Origin: an uncultured Candidatus Saccharibacteria bacterium
GTDB taxonomy: Bacteria; Patescibacteriota; Minisyncoccia; Minisyncoccales; MHMH01
Reading direction: 5' to 3'
Length of the DNA: 64,000 nt
Assembly: GCA_964482335.1 (NCBI GenBank)
Contig: CAYZXA010000002.1
Span: forward strand, 586-64,585
Below are positions 5,210-48,691 of the stretch, in pieces. Numbering within the stretch: the stretch's first letter is position 1; each line of letters opens with the position of its first letter. The translations under genes and the position numbers were made by a program. The notes beneath the pieces were generated by a model, which saw nothing but the letters and a program-made list of their open reading frames with translations, was not told the origin of the DNA and searched no databases.

Positions 5210-5345
5210 TTAGGGCTTCTTACCAACCCTTATTACCCTTACTTCAGCTTGATTGCTATTTATTACAACAGATATATAAGAAAGCCAATCGCCTACTTTT
5301 AAGTCTTCGAGCTTCTCCTCCCCGGTATAAATGTTTGCAAATTCT
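5210..5345 (-). pseudogene. Relic of the 3' end of a DUF5666-like paralog
   Basis: The minus-strand frame reads ..YVPEFANIYTGEEKLEDLKVGDWLSYISVVINSNQAEVRVIRVGKKP* with the stop at 5212..5210. It carries the family C-terminal motif (E/D)LK(V/I)GD. It has no start codon, and an in-frame TGA lies at 5404..5402. Confidence 0.6.
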
Positions 5346-6200: not shown

Positions 6201-8672
6201 TCAAAAGCCATCAAAAAAGTCAATAACAGCAGCAAAAATTTGCTTCAACCAAATAATTGGCGGTATTTCTTTATACTCTGGTAAAGGTAATTGAGCAGTA
6301 AGCTCTTGTTCGTCTGATTCACAAGAGTATGGCACTGCATCTGTCACTTTGAGCTTAATCTTGTTAGTTGAACTTAAGAACTTAATGTGTGGTTCTTCTG
6401 AAGTAGGACCTGTCTCATCAGCATATTGTTCCTCACCTTCGGTCACTGTCCAGAAATAGTTAACGTTCTCTTCTTCAGGATCAAAGACAACTACTTCTCC
6501 CTGGGTAGGACTCTCTGGCAGCCAGCTGAAGCCAGACCAGGGATAGGCATGCAAGGGAGTGGTAAAAGGATAAGCGTTTGACCATTCTGACCAATTACCT
6601 TGGTCATCTTTTACTTTTACTTTCCAATAATAGGTATTGTTCCAAGAAAGCTCTGTTAGCCAGTCTGAATTGTCATCATGAGATAAGGTTAAAACATAAG
6701 AGGTAGCACCAAGGTTAACTAAATGATTGAATTTTGGGTCAGCAAAACTAGCATCAACATCCACCCAGATTTCATAGCCAGCTTGAGGATCTGAATTTGG
6801 ATCAGAGTAGGTCCAGTTAAAAATAGGTATGCTTTTGTTTTTAAATGAGCAGTTGTTCCAATCTACTCCCTGACCACTGCCGTTGCCACCTCCTCCACCA
6901 CCTGTAGCTTCAGGTGTGTTAGGAGGTTGATTACAATCTGCACCTGTTGAACACTGGTTTGAAGGACAAGAAGCAGAGGCAGAGCAAGAATCCCAAGTAC
7001 AATCACTCTGGCAGGTTTGAGAACCAGTATCAGTAATGGTACCAACTAGACATTGACTACCGCTACAATAAGTATAGGAGCAACTGTCCGAACAAGATTG
7101 GATAGAATCTGGGGAACATGCTCCCTCACCAGTACAAGAACCCCAGGACACAGGCCAGGTACAATCTGATTGACAGGTTCTTGATTGAGTTCCGCAATTG
7201 CCACAGTCTTGAGATTGGATAGAATCTGGGGAACATGCTCCCTCACCAGTACAAGAACCCCAGGACACAGGCCAGGTACAATCTGATTGACAGGTTCTTG
7301 ATTGAGTTCCGCAATTGCCACAGTCTTGAGATTGAGTAGAATCCGGAGAACAAGCACCTTGGAGAATACAAGAACCCCAAGAATCCCAGGTACAATCTGA
7401 CTGACAGGTTCTGAATTGGGTTCCGCAATTGCCACAGCCTTGAGATTGGATAGAATCTGGGGAACAAGCACCTTGGAGAATACAAGAACCCCAAGAATCC
7501 CAAGTACAATCTGACTGACAGGTTCTGAATTGGGTTCCGCAATTGCCACAGTCTTGAGATTGGATAGAATCTGCAATACACGGTGCCCCACAGGCTACAC
7601 TACAGTTTTCAGTAGAATAATCACATTGACAGATATCAAAATTACAACTACCATTGTAATATTTTGTATATTCCACACATTTATCAGGACAATAATCAGT
7701 CGCTCCACCCTCACACTCTGCTCCACACCCTGTATGACAATATGACGGTCCCCAGCCCCAACAATTTGGCCAACTACAAGTACAGCTACAATACACCATA
7801 AAAGAGCCATCGCACCAAGTAGTGTCTGGTGGACAACCTCCAAGCCAACAGGTCTCGTCACAATAAGTACTGCAGTCGTACTGGCCTTCGCCCGAAGGCG
7901 GATCAGGACCAGAAATACATTCTCCATCAACACAAGTCCAGCCTTCTGGGCACGAAGTACCAATAGCCTCTCTTGACTCGTCTGGTTTTCCTTCATCTGT
8001 ACCACAATTATTTGAATCAGTACAAGTTCGAGTTTGGGTAAAGGACGTGCCGCAAGATTTAATAATAGGAGACGGCAACCAAGTAGTGCATGACCAAATA
8101 GGGTTACAGGCTGGGGCACAAGAACCTCCAGAGCAGTAACCTGAATCACATAAGCTTGTACAGCTGTCATCGTTGTAATAATACTGGGTTACATTGAGTT
8201 TACACCCCCCTCCACTATAACAAGTATACCAGCTATGATAGTAATAACCTTGGCAGGCGACTGAAGAACATATGTCGCTTGTCCAGTCGCTTGAACAGGA
8301 TTCAGAGTAGGCTGTGCATTGAGTCTCATAATAGCCATCAACTTCGCAGGATTCCCAATAGCCTTCAACTTCACAGGATTCCCAATGTTCATTGGTAAAA
8401 TAATAGCAGTCATCCCAATACCACTCATCAAGCCAGGCAAAATACACCCATTTACCACCATCGCATTGAAAGGGAACCCAGTTACATTCATCGTCAGTAT
8501 AGCCAGGAACCCAGTTACATTCATCGTCAGTATAGCCAGGAACCCAAACCTCTTCACATTCCTCCCAAGAGCAGGTAAGAGCCTGGGCCGATTGAGCAAA
8601 AATAAAAATCCCACCCACAACAATGAGACCTAAAAATAAACCTTTTAAATATAAAGAAAGAGAAATTCTCAC
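6201..8672 (-). CDS. Giant secreted Cys-rich repeat protein with C-terminal FN3-like and PKD-like domains
   Basis: 823 aa with a GTG start and a signal peptide ending ..FAQSAQA. By my hand count there are about 80 Cys in residues 31-580. It has four and a half 38-39 aa repeats [32 protein letters not shown]. The C-terminus carries YEIWVD...GNWSEWS (FN3-like WSxWS) followed by an Ig/PKD-like segment. Confidence 0.9.
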   Translation of the reverse strand: MRISLSLYLKGLFLGLIVVGGIFIFAQSAQALTCSWEECEEVWVPGYTDDECNWVPGYTDDECNWVPFQCDGGKWVYFAWLDEWYWDDCYYFTNEHWESCEVEGYWESCEVDGYYETQCTAYSESCSSDWTSDICSSVACQGYYYHSWYTCYSGGGCKLNVTQYYYNDDSCTSLCDSGYCSGGSCAPACNPIWSCTTWLPSPIIKSCGTSFTQTRTCTDSNNCGTDEGKPDESREAIGTSCPEGWTCVDGECISGPDPPSGEGQYDCSTYCDETCWLGGCPPDTTWCDGSFMVYCSCTCSWPNCWGWGPSYCHTGCGAECEGGATDYCPDKCVEYTKYYNGSCNFDICQCDYSTENCSVACGAPCIADSIQSQDCGNCGTQFRTCQSDCTWDSWGSCILQGACSPDSIQSQGCGNCGTQFRTCQSDCTWDSWGSCILQGACSPDSTQSQDCGNCGTQSRTCQSDCTWPVSWGSCTGEGACSPDSIQSQDCGNCGTQSRTCQSDCTWPVSWGSCTGEGACSPDSIQSCSDSCSYTYCSGSQCLVGTITDTGSQTCQSDCTWDSCSASASCPSNQCSTGADCNQPPNTPEATGGGGGGNGSGQGVDWNNCSFKNKSIPIFNWTYSDPNSDPQAGYEIWVDVDASFADPKFNHLVNLGATSYVLTLSHDDNSDWLTELSWNNTYYWKVKVKDDQGNWSEWSNAYPFTTPLHAYPWSGFSWLPESPTQGEVVVFDPEEENVNYFWTVTEGEEQYADETGPTSEEPHIKFLSSTNKIKLKVTDAVPYSCESDEQELTAQLPLPEYKEIPPIIWLKQIFAAVIDFFDGF
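7092..7586 (-). repeat. In-frame tandem 114-117 bp coding repeats (4 full + 1 partial)
   Basis: These are protein residues 363-527. Neighbouring units are nearly identical at the DNA level. Confidence 0.9.
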
Positions 8673-33012: not shown

Positions 33013-33021
33013 AAAAGAAAA

Positions 33022-33053
33022 AAGGCAAGATCATTAATTAACCTTGCCTTTTC
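33022..33053 (+). terminator. Intrinsic terminator
   Basis: AAGGCAAG-13 nt-CTTGCCTT is followed by TT(C). Confidence 0.55.
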
Positions 33054-33086
33054 AGAAATAAACCGAGGAGCGAAGCAAATAAAGAG

Positions 33087-33314
33087 TTAGAAGTCGGGAG
33101 CTTCATGACTATCAGGGAGAACGCTCTTGTTCTCAGTATACCAGTCTTTAACATTCTTGCTCAGCGTCTCAACCTCTTCGGTCACTTCCTTCAGTCTTTC
33201 CTGCCCATTGCTCACTTTCTTCAAGAGATAAGCCCTTTCTCTCCTCTGACGGATAAGCTTCTGAAGGTTCCGGCCTTCTTTCTTAATTGCGCTATTGCTT
33301 GATAAGCCAAACAT
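33087..33314 (-). CDS. Hypothetical small coiled-coil protein
   Basis: I moved the start to ATG 33314 (MFGLSS..), which has the RBS GGGAGGT 5 nt upstream. 75 aa. Confidence 0.55.
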   Translation of the reverse strand: MFGLSSNSAIKKEGRNLQKLIRQRRERAYLLKKVSNGQERLKEVTEEVETLSKNVKDWYTENKSVLPDSHEAPDF

Positions 33315-33456
33315 TGTTACCTCCCACTTTTTTAAATTTTTGTTCATCCGATGTTTCAGCTTTCTCTATCTGCTTTCTGGCCAAGACTATATCTAACCCT
33401 TCATGTTCTCAGTCCTCCTTTTTACAATATTTTATATTATATACCCATTTTAAAAA

Positions 33457-33885
33457 ATGTCAAGACCTATGTCTAAAAAACGCATAAAAGCAGAGTTTTC
33501 TAAAAAAATACAAGAAATAATCCTCTCTGATAAAACAGCGGAGGACATCGGGAATATTTGCGGAAAGTGTGACATTGCTAATGAAGAGAAAATTGAAAAT
33601 ATTGCCTATCAGATAGGTATAGTCTTATTGGGTAGGTTGTCGCCCGAAAAATTAGCTAAAACACTAGAGAAAAAGGTGAAATTGAAATCAAAAATAGCTA
33701 AAAAAGTCTCTGAAGAAGTAAACAAGCTCATTTTTTCTCCGATAAAAGATGACTTAGCTAAACTTTATGAAAAAGAGGTCTTTGTAAAACCAGTAGTTAA
33801 ACCTGGTAATTCTGTACTTCCTCCACTAAAAGAAGAACCTAAGAGATCTCCAAGAAAAGACACTTATCGTGAACCAATAGAATAA
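33457..33885 (+). CDS. Hypothetical protein, first gene of the plus-strand T4SS-like operon
   Basis: 142 aa with no recognisable motif. It sits 2 nt upstream of the next gene. Confidence 0.6.
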   Translation: MSRPMSKKRIKAEFSKKIQEIILSDKTAEDIGNICGKCDIANEEKIENIAYQIGIVLLGRLSPEKLAKTLEKKVKLKSKIAKKVSEEVNKLIFSPIKDDLAKLYEKEVFVKPVVKPGNSVLPPLKEEPKRSPRKDTYREPIE

Positions 33886-45141: not shown

Positions 45142-45192
45142 TTTCATCAGAACCTTAATTTGCTAAATAAATTAATTTAACCTTAGCAAACT

Positions 45193-45220
45193 AAAAATCC
45201 CCATCGTACCGGGGATTTTT
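45193..45220. terminator. Bidirectional intrinsic terminator
   Basis: AAAAATCCCC-8 nt-GGGGATTTTT lies between convergent genes. Confidence 0.8.
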
Positions 45221-45226
45221 AGTTTG

Positions 45227-45433
45227 TTACTCAGTTTTCTCTTCGTCTTCAGCTCCCTCTTTTGGAGTCTCGGTTCCTTCTTCTGGAGTCTCGGTTCCTT
45301 CTTTTGGAGTCTCAGCTCCTTCTTCAGGAGTGTCTTCTTGAGAGACAAAACCAGTAGGAGTTTCGGTTTCAGGAGTTTCAGGAGTGTCTCCTTCTGGAGT
45401 AGGCTCCTGAGCGATTAATTTGTCGTAAACCAT
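45227..45433 (-). CDS. Small acidic low-complexity protein with TPE(E/K)G repeats
   Basis: 68 aa, with the stop 6 nt from the terminator. I take the plus-strand ORF 45224..45418 to be its shadow. The RBS is weak. Confidence 0.5.
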   Translation of the reverse strand: MVYDKLIAQEPTPEGDTPETPETETPTGFVSQEDTPEEGAETPKEGTETPEEGTETPKEGAEDEEKTE

Positions 45434-45488
45434 ATTTGACTTCGTTTAATTTCTAATTCAGTTTTCTCGACCTTTGCTTGGCCCTCTT

Positions 45489-45513
45489 TAAAAAAGAACC
45501 AAGTTTTGGTTCT
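45489..45513 (-). terminator. Intrinsic terminator downstream of ruvC
   Basis: On the minus strand AGAACCAA-aac-TTGGTTCT is followed by TTTTTT. Confidence 0.6.
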
Positions 45514-45546
45514 ACATAAGACATTATAGCAGTTTAAAAGGCTTTG

Positions 45547-46038
45547 TCAAGCCTTTCTGGTGAAAACGTAGGTCAAGGCGATAGCTAAGGCATCAGCTGC
45601 GTCATCGGGTTTAGGTATCGCTTTTAGCCTAAATAGTGATTTGATCTTCTTTTGGACTTGGATTTTTTCAGCTTTGCCAGAGCCAGTTACTACCATTTTA
45701 ATTTGCAAGGGGCTGAATTCACAAACTGGAATCCCTTTTTTAGCAGCCGTTAATAGAATTACTCCCTTGGCCTGGCTAACCGGCATGGCTGTTTTTAAAT
45801 TTTTGAAGAAAAAGACATTCTCAACAGCCAGAACTTTGGGCTGGTGCTTCGTAATTAATTTGCCAAGCTTGTTGTTTATTATTTTTAATCGTTCAGCTGG
45901 AGCTAAAGTAGAGCTGGTTTTGATTACGCCATAATCCAGGCATTTAAAATTGTTCCGTGTTTTACGTTTTAGGTTTTTGGCTCTTATTATGCCATAGCCA
46001 GTTGTGGCTGTGCCTGGGTCGATGCCTATAATTATCAT
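45547..46038 (-). CDS. ruvC: Holliday junction resolvase RuvC
   Basis: 163 aa starting MIIIGIDPGTATTGYGII, with the C-terminal DAADALAIAL. Confidence 0.9.
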   Translation of the reverse strand: MIIIGIDPGTATTGYGIIRAKNLKRKTRNNFKCLDYGVIKTSSTLAPAERLKIINNKLGKLITKHQPKVLAVENVFFFKNLKTAMPVSQAKGVILLTAAKKGIPVCEFSPLQIKMVVTGSGKAEKIQVQKKIKSLFRLKAIPKPDDAADALAIALTYVFTRKA

Positions 46039-46039
46039 A

Positions 46040-46600
46040 TTATTCCTTTAAGTTAGAGTATATTTCCTGGACTGCTTCGTTTTCGTCCAAAGCTTCAAAT
46101 AGTTTTTGGCACGCTTCTTTGTCTTTGCCTGATGTTTCAACCCCTTGCTTAGGCACCCACTCCAAAGAGCCGGGTTCTTCTTTTTTTACCTTTCTCTCAA
46201 ACATCCATTGCACTCCACCTTCAGCTACCAGCTTGCCATTATTTTGGTTTAAGATTTGCTTGATTTCTCCTAAGGCCCTGTTTCTGTTGTCAGTAATCCC
46301 TTCGATGATAATGGCTACTCCGCCTGGCCCAAAAGCTTCGAAAACAACATTTTCTAGCCTAGCTCCCTCTAGTTCACCGACGCCTTTTTTAATGGCCCTA
46401 TCGACATTTTCCTTGGGCATGTTAAATTCCTTGGCTTTTTCAATTGCTGTTCTCAAGCTCGGGTTGGTATTGGGGTCTCCTCCTTTTTCTCTGGCAGTAA
46501 CTGAAATCTGCCGAGAAAGCTTTGAGAAGACATTTCCCCGCTTAGCATCAGCTGTCTGCTTTTGGTATTTGATTGAATGCCAATGACTGTGGCCACTCAT
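46040..46600 (-). CDS. YebC/PmpR-family protein (short form)
   Basis: 186 aa starting MSGHSHWHSIKYQK..AKRG..F.KL. It is shorter than the usual ~240 aa. Confidence 0.85.
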   Translation of the reverse strand: MSGHSHWHSIKYQKQTADAKRGNVFSKLSRQISVTAREKGGDPNTNPSLRTAIEKAKEFNMPKENVDRAIKKGVGELEGARLENVVFEAFGPGGVAIIIEGITDNRNRALGEIKQILNQNNGKLVAEGGVQWMFERKVKKEEPGSLEWVPKQGVETSGKDKEACQKLFEALDENEAVQEIYSNLKE

Positions 46601-47295
46601 GTTTCTTTATTATAACCTACTTTTAACTTCTTTTTAAGTAATAGAATTATTATCCCCGAAAAAATGGCTAGACCCAAAGCGATTAGTAAAACAGGAAGAG
46701 AACCTGATGCCTCAGTGATTTGATCTTCAATGTCTGCCAGATACCTGGTTTTATCGGATTGGGCAGGGGAGTCTGTTTGAGATTGGACTTCAATCACAGT
46801 GCTGTTTTGAGACTTTGGCGTACCTTCAGGCTCTTGGCTTGTTTGCCACGAGTTAATATCTTTTCTCTCCATTGTTTGTTTAGTTGAGTTATCCCCAGCC
46901 AACCAGCCATCCTGGCAAAGAGCAGAGTCAATTACTTTTCCAGAACTATCATGGAGCTCCAAGGGCTCACATTTATTATTTAAAGCACCTGTATATATTT
47001 GGTCAGCAGAAATATCTGGAACTGAATTATCATCCGTCCTCTCTAATAGATAAAAGCCATTAACTTTTATTGCTCCTGTTAAGGCGACTCCTTTCAAGGT
47101 CCAACCCTCGAGACTTATTGAGGAATCAGTCTTGTTATACAATTCAATCCATTCGTCGTTATGAGAAACCTTTGTTCCCATCCAGGCAACTTCATTAATG
47201 AGGACGTCTGATAGATTGGCAGCGAAAACAAAATTGGCTGATAAAATTCCAGCCAAAATAAGAAAGACCATCGTAGGACTTGACAATATTTTCAT
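46597..47295 (-). CDS. Lamin-tail-domain (LTD) surface protein with C-terminal TM anchor
   Basis: 232 aa with a signal peptide, VLINEVAWMG..DEWIELYN.., and the C-terminal hydrophobic segment LPVLLIALGLAIFSGIIILLL. Confidence 0.75.
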   Translation of the reverse strand: MKILSSPTMVFLILAGILSANFVFAANLSDVLINEVAWMGTKVSHNDEWIELYNKTDSSISLEGWTLKGVALTGAIKVNGFYLLERTDDNSVPDISADQIYTGALNNKCEPLELHDSSGKVIDSALCQDGWLAGDNSTKQTMERKDINSWQTSQEPEGTPKSQNSTVIEVQSQTDSPAQSDKTRYLADIEDQITEASGSLPVLLIALGLAIFSGIIILLLKKKLKVGYNKET

Positions 47296-47308
47296 AATAG
47301 AGTATAAT
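47280..47308 (+). promoter_or_regulatory. Perfect consensus sigma70 promoter TTGACA-N17-TATAAT
   Basis: The -35 element is at 47280..47285 and the -10 at 47303..47308. It overlaps the start codon of the divergent LTD gene. Confidence 0.65.
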
Positions 47309-47314
47309 AGAGTG

Positions 47315-47451
47315 TTAAAAGCAGTCCAGGACCTGGGGGTAAGGAATTTCTTTTAGTTGGCTAGTCTGGCGAGAGCGAGACTATTCCACGAAGGAATTCT
47401 AAACTTTATGTTCCTAAGCTAGAGTACCCCCAGCTCCTGGGCTATTTTTTT
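47315..47451 (+). ncRNA. Unknown structured small RNA (~135 nt)
   Basis: A closing helix pairs CCAGGACCTGGGGGTA (47326..47341) with TACCCCCAGCTCCTGG (47425..47440). Inner hairpins are GGAAT..TAGTCT-loop-AGACTA..ATTCC and AGGAA..TTCCT. A T7 run at 47445..47451 overlaps the stop of the convergent pilB-like gene. I recognised no family, and the ends are approximate. Confidence 0.5.
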
Positions 47452-48691
47452 ATCCGGTTACTCTTTTTACTTCTTCCAAAGTAGTCAGACCTTCCAAGAC
47501 CTTCATCAACCCGTCTTGCCTTAAAGGCACCATGCCTTTCTTTATGGCCATTTTCCTTAAAGCAGCAATAGAAGGAGAGGTTAAGACGAACCTTTCTATT
47601 TCTTCGTCCATTAAAAACGCTTCAAAAATGCCTATTCTGCCTTTGTAGCCAGTAAAGTTGCAGTATTTGCATCCTTTTGTTTGCGGTATCTTTATATCCT
47701 TGGGGAGTTTTTTTACTTCCTTTTTTATTGTCTTTATTTCCTGAGCGTTTGGTTTTCTCAGTTTGCTGCATTTTTGGCAAACCTTTCTGACTAACCTTTG
47801 GGCCACAGCCAAATTAACGGCTGGGCCAATATTCGAGGGTTTAGCGCCTAAACTTATTAGTCTGGCTACAGTTCCAGCAGCGTCATTAGTATGTAAGGTT
47901 GTTAGAACTAGGTGGCCGGTTAAAGCAGCCTGCAAAGCAGTTTTAACAGTTTCTAAGTCCCTTACTTCCCCAACCAAGATTACGTCAGGGTCCTGCCTCA
48001 TGACTGATTTTAAGCCTGAAGCAAAATCATATCCTTTCTTAACTTGGGTTTGAGAGACACCTTCTAAATGGTATTCTATCGGGTCTTCAATTGTAATGAT
48101 TTTGATTTCCGGCCTTTGAATCTTTTTTAAGAAAGCATACAGGGTAGTTGTTTTACCAGAGCCGGTTGGTCCAGTAACAATAATCATACCATTTGGTTTT
48201 TTTATTTCTTTTTTAAATATAGCCAACAAGTCCTTTCTTGGTCCTAAGGCTTCCAATTCAACCAAGGTTTTGGGATTTAAGATTCTTAAGACAATTGATT
48301 CTCCTTTTTCAGCTGGCAAGGTAGAAACCCTTATTTCGACTGGTAGGTTGCTGGGCGATAGAATAGAAAACCGGCCATCTTGAGGTCGGTTTGTTATATT
48401 CAGCTTAAGGCCAGCCAGCAATTTAATTCGAGAGAGCAGAGCTTCATACGGTTTTCTGTCGATTGTCACGACATCCTGCAAGATGCCGTCAACTCTTATC
48501 CTTGTTTTAGCTTCTTTTATCCCTGGTTCGAGATGAAGGTCTGAAGCTTCAAGCGAGATAGCTCCTCCTAAAATAGCTGCCAACAACTCAGTTGTCTTTT
48601 TGTTCAAAGACTTCTTAATTTTCTCTTTAAGTTCGGCAATGTTGTTCACCGTAAGAGGAGAAATTTTGATTTCGCCAGTAATCTTCTCCAT
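47450..48691 (-). CDS. GspE/PilB-family secretion/pilus assembly ATPase (short form)
   Basis: 413 aa with Walker A GPTGSGKTT, Walker B ILVGEVRD, His box TGHLVLTTLHTN, and C-terminal CQKC..CKYC. Confidence 0.85.
   Translation of the reverse strand: MEKITGEIKISPLTVNNIAELKEKIKKSLNKKTTELLAAILGGAISLEASDLHLEPGIKEAKTRIRVDGILQDVVTIDRKPYEALLSRIKLLAGLKLNITNRPQDGRFSILSPSNLPVEIRVSTLPAEKGESIVLRILNPKTLVELEALGPRKDLLAIFKKEIKKPNGMIIVTGPTGSGKTTTLYAFLKKIQRPEIKIITIEDPIEYHLEGVSQTQVKKGYDFASGLKSVMRQDPDVILVGEVRDLETVKTALQAALTGHLVLTTLHTNDAAGTVARLISLGAKPSNIGPAVNLAVAQRLVRKVCQKCSKLRKPNAQEIKTIKKEVKKLPKDIKIPQTKGCKYCNFTGYKGRIGIFEAFLMDEEIERFVLTSPSIAALRKMAIKKGMVPLRQDGLMKVLEGLTTLEEVKRVTG

Follow-up and report, generated by a model that had tools for sequence, protein, structure and literature searches.

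Bacteria of the candidate phyla radiation (CPR) have tiny genomes and are almost all uncultured; to our knowledge, very few non-coding RNAs beyond the universal ones have been described in them. The described systems with which the element reported here is best compared comprise GadY of E. coli, a cis-encoded antisense small RNA (sRNA) located in the gadX–gadW spacer, the pRNA of phage phi29, a three-way-junction RNA of ca. 120 nt working with a ring ATPase, 6S RNA, a rod-like hairpin of ca. 150–200 nt in which both strands open into a large central bubble, and the 4.5S RNA of the signal recognition particle (SRP), whose domain IV (helix 8) has a GNRA tetraloop closing a short helix beside symmetric (AGG/AGCA) and asymmetric loops. 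In Streptomyces, the antisense sRNA scr4677 is encoded in an intra-operonic spacer (PMC3896431), while bidirectional termination in E. coli involves programmed RNA polymerase collisions at stem-loops between convergent genes (10.1101/2022.10.23.513370). The DNA analysed here, referred to as the window, is a 64,000-nt stretch of contig CAYZXA010000002.1 (GCA_964482335.1) from an uncultured Candidatus Saccharibacteria bacterium, MHMH01 in GTDB. The element in question is the predicted gene of a structured RNA on the plus strand, situated between the convergent gene of a GspE/PilB-type secretion ATPase (pilB) and a back-to-back gene coding for a lamin-tail-domain (LTD) protein. It represents, very probably, a real and new family of structured sRNAs, and its fuller description as a stand-alone sRNA gene of ca. 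125–135 nt, the type of a new family of Parcubacteria/Paceibacteria-type Patescibacteria, is likely. Stand-alone structured sRNAs are an established category in bacteria, to which a new family is added here; a new category is not claimed.

The position of the RNA gene is that of GadY and scr4677: it has its own promoter and is located on the opposite strand in the spacer of two co-directional genes, next to the start of the downstream one, and its RNA would be fully complementary to any read-through mRNA. Unlike those two, it has a covariation-supported three-way junction and invariant loop nucleotides and is conserved throughout a deep lineage, parts of which show no overlap between the RNA and the 3′ end of pilB; GadY shows no similarity to it in sequence or structure (no Rfam hit). 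With the collision terminators it shares a GC-rich stem, with one flank somewhat A-rich and the other T-rich, placed exactly between converging units, so that a nascent stem-loop would lie at the collision point, but ca. 95 nt of structure, conserved and covarying, are enclosed by its stem, the RNA itself is one of the two converging units, the selection is strand-specific (G·U to A·C cells, 368:50), and about one locus in three lacks the U-run. The size class, consensus promoter, single-copy stand-alone gene, lineage-wide conservation, and the pairing of the 5′ and 3′ ends in a long closing helix are reminiscent of SRP/4.5S and 6S RNA, from which the present RNA differs in having no domain IV loops or GNRA tetraloop, no 6S bubble, and no Rfam hit. 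It may also be likened to phi29 pRNA, as a three-way-junction RNA of similar size whose gene adjoins, and which possibly serves, a hexameric translocating ATPase, though there is neither sequence nor structural homology between the two, nor a phage context (0 matches in viral contigs).

Conservation and covariation of the RNA

The first search for homologues, performed by nhmmer with the window element, covered 28 pilB loci, in 19 of which the same element is located directly after pilB on the opposite strand. R1, a covariance model of the RNA, raised its presence to 23 of the 25 Patescibacteria loci with enough flanking sequence, including three outside the training set of the model (L005, L016, and L020; loci are designated by L numbers). 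The RNA was not found in L012 and L017, nor in the non-Patescibacteria pilB loci. The relatives of the ATPase gene come from Patescibacteria metagenome-assembled genomes (MAGs) labelled Parcubacteria, Nealsonbacteria, Gribaldobacteria, and Paceibacterota. A scan of metagenome contigs with a degenerate 48-nt pattern, derived from the RNA alone, gave at least 119 stretches. R1 matched 72 of the first 80 of them and four further ones, amounting to at least 76 model-confirmed metagenome loci, and 25 more stretches, for which there is no R1 score, share the gene context. The loci L045, L072, L075, and L092 originate from the Hainich sites. As judged from these sequences, the predicted RNA is conserved, with the same promoter and fold, in at least about 100 uncultured Parcubacteria loci. 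Pattern hits that lack the pilB context and are not R1 matches were regarded as due to chance (L112, L115, L121, L123, L124, L126, L127, and L129, and further L144, L146, L036, L046, L048, L060, L069, L096, and L105). A phage or mobile origin of the element was rejected, with no pattern matches in viral contigs and a single copy in the window.

The RNA comprises a closing helix, P1, and two inner hairpins, P2 and P3, in a three-way junction. From alignment A1 (18 sequences aligned by MAFFT only, independently of R1), RNAalifold recovers P1 and both halves of P2; 93.8% of the pair cells in A1 are standard, as against 39–60% in slid controls, in which the pairing partners are moved by 1–3 columns, and there are 27 compensatory pairs, a result reached by none of 500 shuffles. 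Structure statistics for a larger set were based on 78 distinct sequences, with 95.1% of the pair cells paired vs. 43–59% in the slid controls and again no shuffle out of 500 reaching this value. Compensatory changes in related MAGs, by which the original prediction from the window sequence was to be checked, occur in 32 of the 39 pairs over the 78 sequences, all 18 pairs of P1 among them. In the same set, helix 2 is 96% paired with compensatory changes in seven of its 10 pairs, and helix 3 is 95.5% paired with seven of 11. When the model is ignored, the top 13 column pairs in a mutual-information scan are all pairs of the model, the highest ones being in P1, and no non-helical pair scores above the helix pairs, giving no sign of a pseudoknot or tertiary pairing. 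A pairing of AGUU in the P2 internal loop with AACU in J2/3, noticed by eye, was rejected as it is lost in L003, L006, L007, and L019. The covariation support is on par with that of well-supported Rfam families, and a seed alignment with its covariance model could be deposited and would serve for annotating Parcubacteria MAGs.

The strand of the RNA is indicated by the pair types: G·U cells number 368 and A·C cells 50, and 95.1% of the cells are paired on the plus strand, compared with 84.5% on the opposite one. Such an excess of G·U over A·C places the RNA on the plus strand of the window. The positions that are invariant and do not covary form clusters in P2 and at the junction. P2 begins with one group of them, the G·U/G–C step; the others are UAG and UC in its internal loop, the GG/CC pairs beside this loop, which belong to CUCCUC, and the mismatch UGG/C(G/U)R. 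The P2-base pair G36·U114 is G·U in 76 of the 78 sequences. P3 is of another kind, too variable to be aligned: a hairpin of at least 4 bp is formed in 77 of 78 homologues folded singly, while the stem sequences differ (by eye ACUU/AAGU, UUUAG/CUAAA, and UUAGC/GCUAA). The length of the RNA among the homologues is 119–143 nt. In a divergent subgroup (L037, L049, L057, L070, and L084), P3 and the 3′ arm of P1 are separated by an additional hairpin, P4, so that the junction is four-way and the length ca. 155 nt (e.g., L070, 3926–4084); R1 truncates its matches in this subgroup.

Fold of the window copy

The window copy carries the signature of the family, i.e., a match to R1 (P1, P2, and P3), the invariant GG...UGG...C...CCUC...UUCU...CUU, and TTGACA-N17-TAnnnT upstream. 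R1 scores 117 bits at 47318–47446 on the plus strand vs. 27.8 bits on the minus strand, and finds one copy in the window. The folding energy of the plus strand at 47315–47451 is −60.9 kcal/mol (z = −6.7), a value equalled by 0 of 200 shuffles; for the opposite strand of the segment it is −49.2 kcal/mol. The features of the locus are collected in Table 1.

Table 1. Features of the RNA gene and its flanking genes, in coordinates of the window.
Feature	Position	Strand	Remarks
−35 hexamer TTGACA	47280..47285	+	kept in 75/79 homologous loci
−10 hexamer TATAAT, 17-nt spacer before	47303..47308	+	spacer of 17 nt in 73/75 loci
Predicted sRNA transcript, ca. 135 nt	47315..47451	+	5′ end predicted from −10 spacing, 3′ end from the U-run
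P1, 5′ arm; junction-proximal CUGGGGG conserved in sequence	47323..47340	+	18/18 P1 pairs compensatory
P2, long irregular hairpin	47343..47400	+	alignment and covariation
P3, short hairpin of variable sequence	47403..47425	+	folds in 77/78 homologues
P1, 3′ arm; CCCCCAG...	47426..47443	+	
U7 run after P1, likely intrinsic-termination tract	47445..47451	+	T-run in 54/80 loci
LTD gene, back-to-back with the promoter	46597..47295	−	Pfam LTD 2.7e-10
GspE/PilB-type secretion ATPase gene, convergent with the sRNA	47450..48691	−	Pfam T2SSE 4e-111

P1 is an 18-bp helix, one C·C mismatch and one U·G pair included. The 16-bp closing helix with one mismatch proposed in the original prediction is the core of P1, and the two inner hairpins in a three-way junction, foreseen there as well, are P2 and P3. 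P2 is composed of a lower helix (47343–47352 with 47391–47400), starting with a near-invariant G·U pair followed by G–C, an asymmetric internal loop, conserved as UAG in its 5′ strand and as UC in its 3′ strand, and an upper helix (47359–47370 with 47375–47387) with invariant GG/CC pairs and a conserved G·G (or G·U) mismatch. The apical loop in the window copy is GAGA (47371–47374).

The segment was also correctly described as free of open reading frames (ORFs): the longest internal ORF is 0–36 aa over the 78 homologues and is not conserved. With no conserved ORF and with indels that are not multiples of three, a small protein gene was ruled out.

Relation to known RNA families

Rfam (4227 models) was run with gathering thresholds on the whole window and with E≤10 on the element and two divergent homologues. 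The only matches were tRNAs elsewhere in the window and chance-level hits of lncRNA and miRNA families, so that the earlier assignment of the structured RNA to a place outside the known families was upheld by three divergent members at E≤10. ARAGORN likewise found 0 tRNA or tmRNA genes in 47000–47700, the Rfam tRNA hits being elsewhere in the window. Neither is the RNA described in the searchable literature on structured or small RNAs of Patescibacteria, CPR bacteria, or Parcubacteria and on pilB.

The three housekeeping RNAs of comparable size were rejected one by one. With the 4.5S SRP RNA model (RF00169), neither the window copy nor either of the two divergent homologues gave a hit at E≤10. 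The P2 loop does not have the features of SRP domain IV, since its sequence varies (GAGA, UUAG, UCCG, UUUU, UAUG, and others) and there is no AGG/AGCA loop and no AGCA strand; below the P2 apical loop there are 2 bp and then a single G·G or G·U mismatch. 6S RNA (RF00013) was excluded by the three- or four-way junction with ca. 3 nt on its 5′ side, the lack of a rod with a central bubble, and the lack of an Rfam hit. For 5S rRNA (RF00001), whose three-way junction has helix II–III and IV–V arms and loop C/E sequences, there was no hit at E≤10; P1 is 18 bp long, the arms are of ca. 58 and ca. 23 nt, and the conserved sequences are unrelated. A highly divergent SRP/4.5S RNA, 6S RNA, or 5S rRNA missed by the Rfam models would be in keeping with the length of 120–135 nt, the consensus promoter, and the broad conservation in a lineage of reduced genomes. 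Nevertheless, this explanation is largely refuted and has hardly any probability left, given the silence of the Rfam models (4227, E≤10) on three divergent members and the absence of the SRP domain IV motif, the 6S rod and bubble, and the 5S arms and sequences.

Promoter and 3′ end

The exact sequence TTGACA-N17-TATAAT occurs only once in the 64-kb window, and 100 shuffles contain on average 0.02 such sequences, with two of the shuffles having one. A promoter matching the consensus at 12 of 12 positions is therefore rare by chance, as had been claimed. Promoters, which are of sigma-70 type, were counted in 79 homologous loci and T-runs in 80: TTGACA lies at most 60 nt upstream of the RNA in 75 of the 79 and is followed by a −10 sequence of the pattern TAnnnT, with the variants TATAAT, TACAAT, TAAAAT, and TAGAAT.

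In agreement with the original prediction, the divergent LTD gene has its first ATG (47295) within the promoter; the second in-frame ATG is at 47272, 8 nt outside the −35 hexamer. The interference with LTD-gene transcription suggested there as well may occur and would be in keeping with this layout. Within the promoter spacer there is a conserved ATAAT (47294–47298), read on the opposite strand as a −10-like xATTAT, which could be a −10 element shared by both directions. For a conserved minus-strand promoter of ruvB or LTD inside the RNA gene, only weak non-conserved candidates (TGGACT-16-TATACT) were found. It was also observed that the predicted product of the gene back-to-back with the RNA (LTD or comEA-like, and ruvB in L004) starts with M-x-x-L-S-S/T-P, namely in the window (47272–47295, minus strand) and in L002, L004, L006, L007, L019, L022, and L027. 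The codons of this start are the reverse complement of the promoter spacer and the −35 hexamer (TTG TCA coding for L S). Either a real N-terminus is constrained by the promoter, the mRNA being perhaps leaderless and made from a shared bidirectional −10 element, or the true start is at the next ATG (47272).

At the 3′ end of the RNA, the T7 run overlaps the stop codon of pilB (47450–47452) by 2 nt, as anticipated. The 10 nt that follow P1 on the RNA strand contain 6.0 T on average; with respect to the opposite strand, the 8 nt before P1 contain 3.9 A on average and at least 5 in 23 of 77 loci, which makes a weak A-rich tract. The segment enclosed by P1, of ca. 95 nt, is far outside the usual 3–10 nt of a terminator loop, and in other lineages (e.g., L010, L011, L013, L061, L086, and L093) a separate canonical hairpin terminator follows P1. 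The evidence on P1 as a bidirectional terminator of pilB is thus mixed. Since P1 with its CUGGGGG/CCCCCAG is kept where the U-run is missing or a separate terminator is present, it is a conserved part of the RNA and more than a terminator stem.

Genomic context

The order of genes on the minus strand of the window is DHH/NrnA-like, GspE/PilB ATPase, LTD, yebC, and ruvC, with the RNA gene between the second and the third on the opposite strand and tsaE divergent upstream. The NCBIfam models of GspE and PilB match the ATPase with scores below their cut-offs, and an exact-protein look-up of the window PilB returned no record. In the model-confirmed metagenome loci with at least ca. 300 nt past the 3′ end of the RNA, the next gene is a convergent pilB in all but L062, its stop codon being mostly 0–40 nt from the RNA end. 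The neighbour on the 5′ side, back-to-back with the RNA, is ruvB, LTD, or comEA-like, and yebC and ruvC come after it. The order RuvB–RNA–PilB is kept in loci from which tsaE, yebC, and ruvC have moved (L049, L057, L070, L084, L118, L122, and L140). In L012, a Nealsonbacteria MAG (5290–5330), the RNA gene is missing and pilB abuts ruvB without a spacer, which suggests an ancestral pilB–ruvB operon split by the RNA gene, and from the sequence of this locus co-transcription of the two genes in the ancestor may be supposed.

The distance to pilB is larger in L086, L093, and L125, where the RNA is 0.5–0.9 kb from a full-length PilB gene, and its overlap with the pilB 3′ end is therefore not universal. 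In the L086/L093 lineage the RNA carries its own strong terminator. In L093 the RNA and pilB are separated by a 132-aa ORF without a Pfam hit (7018–7416, plus strand), with a beta-CASP RNase gene upstream of the RNA and rpsP–khpA beyond pilB. In L062 (1–1509) the RNA is followed by khpA–trmD on the same strand with no convergent pilB. L062 and L068 share the first ca. 45 nt past the RNA (extent read in L068), after which L068 runs into pilB; the arrangement in L062 is either a rearrangement or a chimeric assembly. A general linkage to khpA/TrmD, considered on account of L062 and L093, was rejected, the window being without khpA and trmD.

Possible function of the RNA

It is proposed, tentatively and with somewhat less than even confidence, that the primary function of the RNA is that of a trans-acting ribonucleoprotein (RNP). 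The mature RNA would be abundant, stable, and trans-acting, and putatively bound by a protein, for which its invariant, non-covarying nucleotides would provide the recognition surface; their recognition by a ligand or another RNA is less likely. P1 would clamp the ends of the RNA and thereby protect them from nucleases, and would serve as a terminator where the U-run follows. Promoter quality and conservation point to a high expression of the RNA, which should then rank among the most abundant transcripts in these cells. The CUCCUC motif, half of which is paired, resembles an anti-Shine–Dalgarno sequence, and the window genome uses GGAGG-type ribosome-binding sites; targeting of Shine–Dalgarno sequences is a possibility. 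The RNA gene may also punctuate transcription, keeping that of pilB out of the downstream ruvB/LTD–yebC–ruvC; as its strong promoter faces the end of pilB head-on from ca. 130 bp, it probably acts in this way. Several points weigh against the proposal as a whole. The existence of the transcript, its ends, and its abundance are predictions from DNA; as alignment A3 was made to fit the model, its pair counts are somewhat inflated, though the MAFFT-only A1 agrees; and the linkage to pilB, near-absolute despite the rearrangement of yebC, ruvC, and tsaE, would be expected of a cis-acting or gene-specific element more than of a housekeeping RNA of general function and suits cis-antisense action and interference at least as well.

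A cis function, to which a smaller though substantial likelihood is given, would be that of an intra-operonic antisense RNA, tuning by pairing and by transcriptional interference the expression of pilB and/or of the downstream recombination and DNA-uptake genes. The RNA is perfectly complementary to the pilB 3′ untranslated region and the pilB–ruvB/LTD spacer; polymerases would collide after pilB, processing or decay would follow from the antisense pairing, and the fold would serve mainly for stability. Such a role is consistent with the convergence with pilB in all flanked model-confirmed loci but one, while other neighbours are rearranged, with the overlaps of the U-run with the pilB stop and of the promoter with the start region of the divergent gene, with the abutment of pilB and ruvB where the RNA is missing (L012), and with the precedents of scr4677 (PMC3896431) and polymerase collisions (10.1101/2022.10.23.513370). 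Antisense action alone, however, needs no three-way junction, invariant loop nucleotides, or near-invariant G·U pair; moreover, in L086, L093, and L125 an RNA with its own strong terminator is 0.5–0.9 kb off, in L093 with an intervening ORF, and in L062 khpA–trmD follow it on the same strand. Were the element no more than a large hairpin separating pilB from the next operon as a bidirectional terminator or insulator, and the plus-strand transcript a functionless by-product, the GC-rich P1 with its somewhat A-rich 5′ and T-rich 3′ sides, the position exactly at the pilB end, and the terminator-like site at 47429–47441 followed by the T-run would be accounted for. This is very improbable in view of the dedicated consensus promoter kept in 75 of 79 loci, the excess of G·U over A·C (368 vs. 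50), which means selection on the plus-strand RNA only, and the ca. 95 nt inside P1, which are the most conserved part and themselves covary; besides, about a third of the loci have no U-run and some lineages have a separate canonical terminator.

A riboswitch-like RNA sensing a ligand, acting alone as a sponge or else as a regulated terminator of antisense read-through into pilB, can be conceived of on the basis of the aptamer-like three-way junction, the long P1, the conserved junction and internal-loop nucleotides, and the frequent U-run. Stand-alone, massively expressed riboswitch RNAs are known, e.g., the c-di-GMP merRNA of Bdellovibrio, and the B12 riboswitch of Listeria controls the antisense RNA AspocR. 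Yet this explanation, too, has a very small probability. No Rfam riboswitch class matched three members at E≤10, and tests for an aptamer class or a cis-leader were negative, pilB downstream being convergent in all flanked loci but one; L062 is the only locus with a same-strand gene after the RNA. A GC-rich P1 of 18 bp would not depend on a ligand for its formation, no anti-terminator pairing is evident, and there is no covariation signal of a pseudoknot or tertiary contact.

A more specific form of the trans-acting RNP, assumed with low confidence, is that of a CPR-specific RNP in which the RNA is the dedicated partner of the hexameric GspE/PilB ATPase or of the nearby DNA-uptake and recombination set (comEA-like, LTD, ruvB, yebC, ruvC, and DHH/NrnA-like). 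With its three-way junction the RNA would here regulate a pilus or secretion motor or serve it as a scaffold. If true, it would explain why the RNA gene has stayed with pilB across deep divergence and local rearrangement; we know of no use of RNA by PilB/GspE ATPases. Episymbionts are thought to need type IV pilus and competence machinery for contact with the host and nucleotide scavenging, and the pilB linkage ties an RNA to this machinery. Even if the RNA gene were only a transcriptional punctuation, it would still be a clear case of an sRNA gene placed head-on inside a conserved operon.

Other consensus promoters in the window

When spacers of 16–18 nt are allowed, there are three promoters with 12 of 12 consensus positions in the window, that of the RNA at 47280 (plus strand) and two on the minus strand, at 45550 and 33463, each of which precedes small protein-coding ORFs. 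Three perfect promoters in one window indicate that consensus promoters are really used by the organism and are not noise.

The promoter at 33463 to 33436 (minus strand), TTGACA-N16-TATAAT, overlaps the start of a plus-strand gene at 33457. Two small ORFs, preceded by GGAGG-type ribosome-binding sites, follow it on the minus strand up to a hairpin terminator near 33030; in the 33020–33463 region Rfam has no match. The other one, TTGACA-N16-TG-TATAAT at 45550 to 45523 (minus strand), overlaps the ruvC stop codon, and within ca. 10 nt of it there is a terminator-like hairpin with a T6 run (45513–45495). Beyond this hairpin lies a 68-aa ORF (45433–45227, minus strand) coding for a very acidic Thr-Pro-Glu repeat, after which comes a strong, bidirectional-looking terminator (45184–45229). 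To judge by its layout, the 45150–45560 region (minus strand), which may be the first of the sRNAs of the original prediction, has the appearance of a gene for a small protein preceded by an attenuator-like leader; it is weakly conserved in six related loci (L002, L032, L019, L053, L077, and L051).

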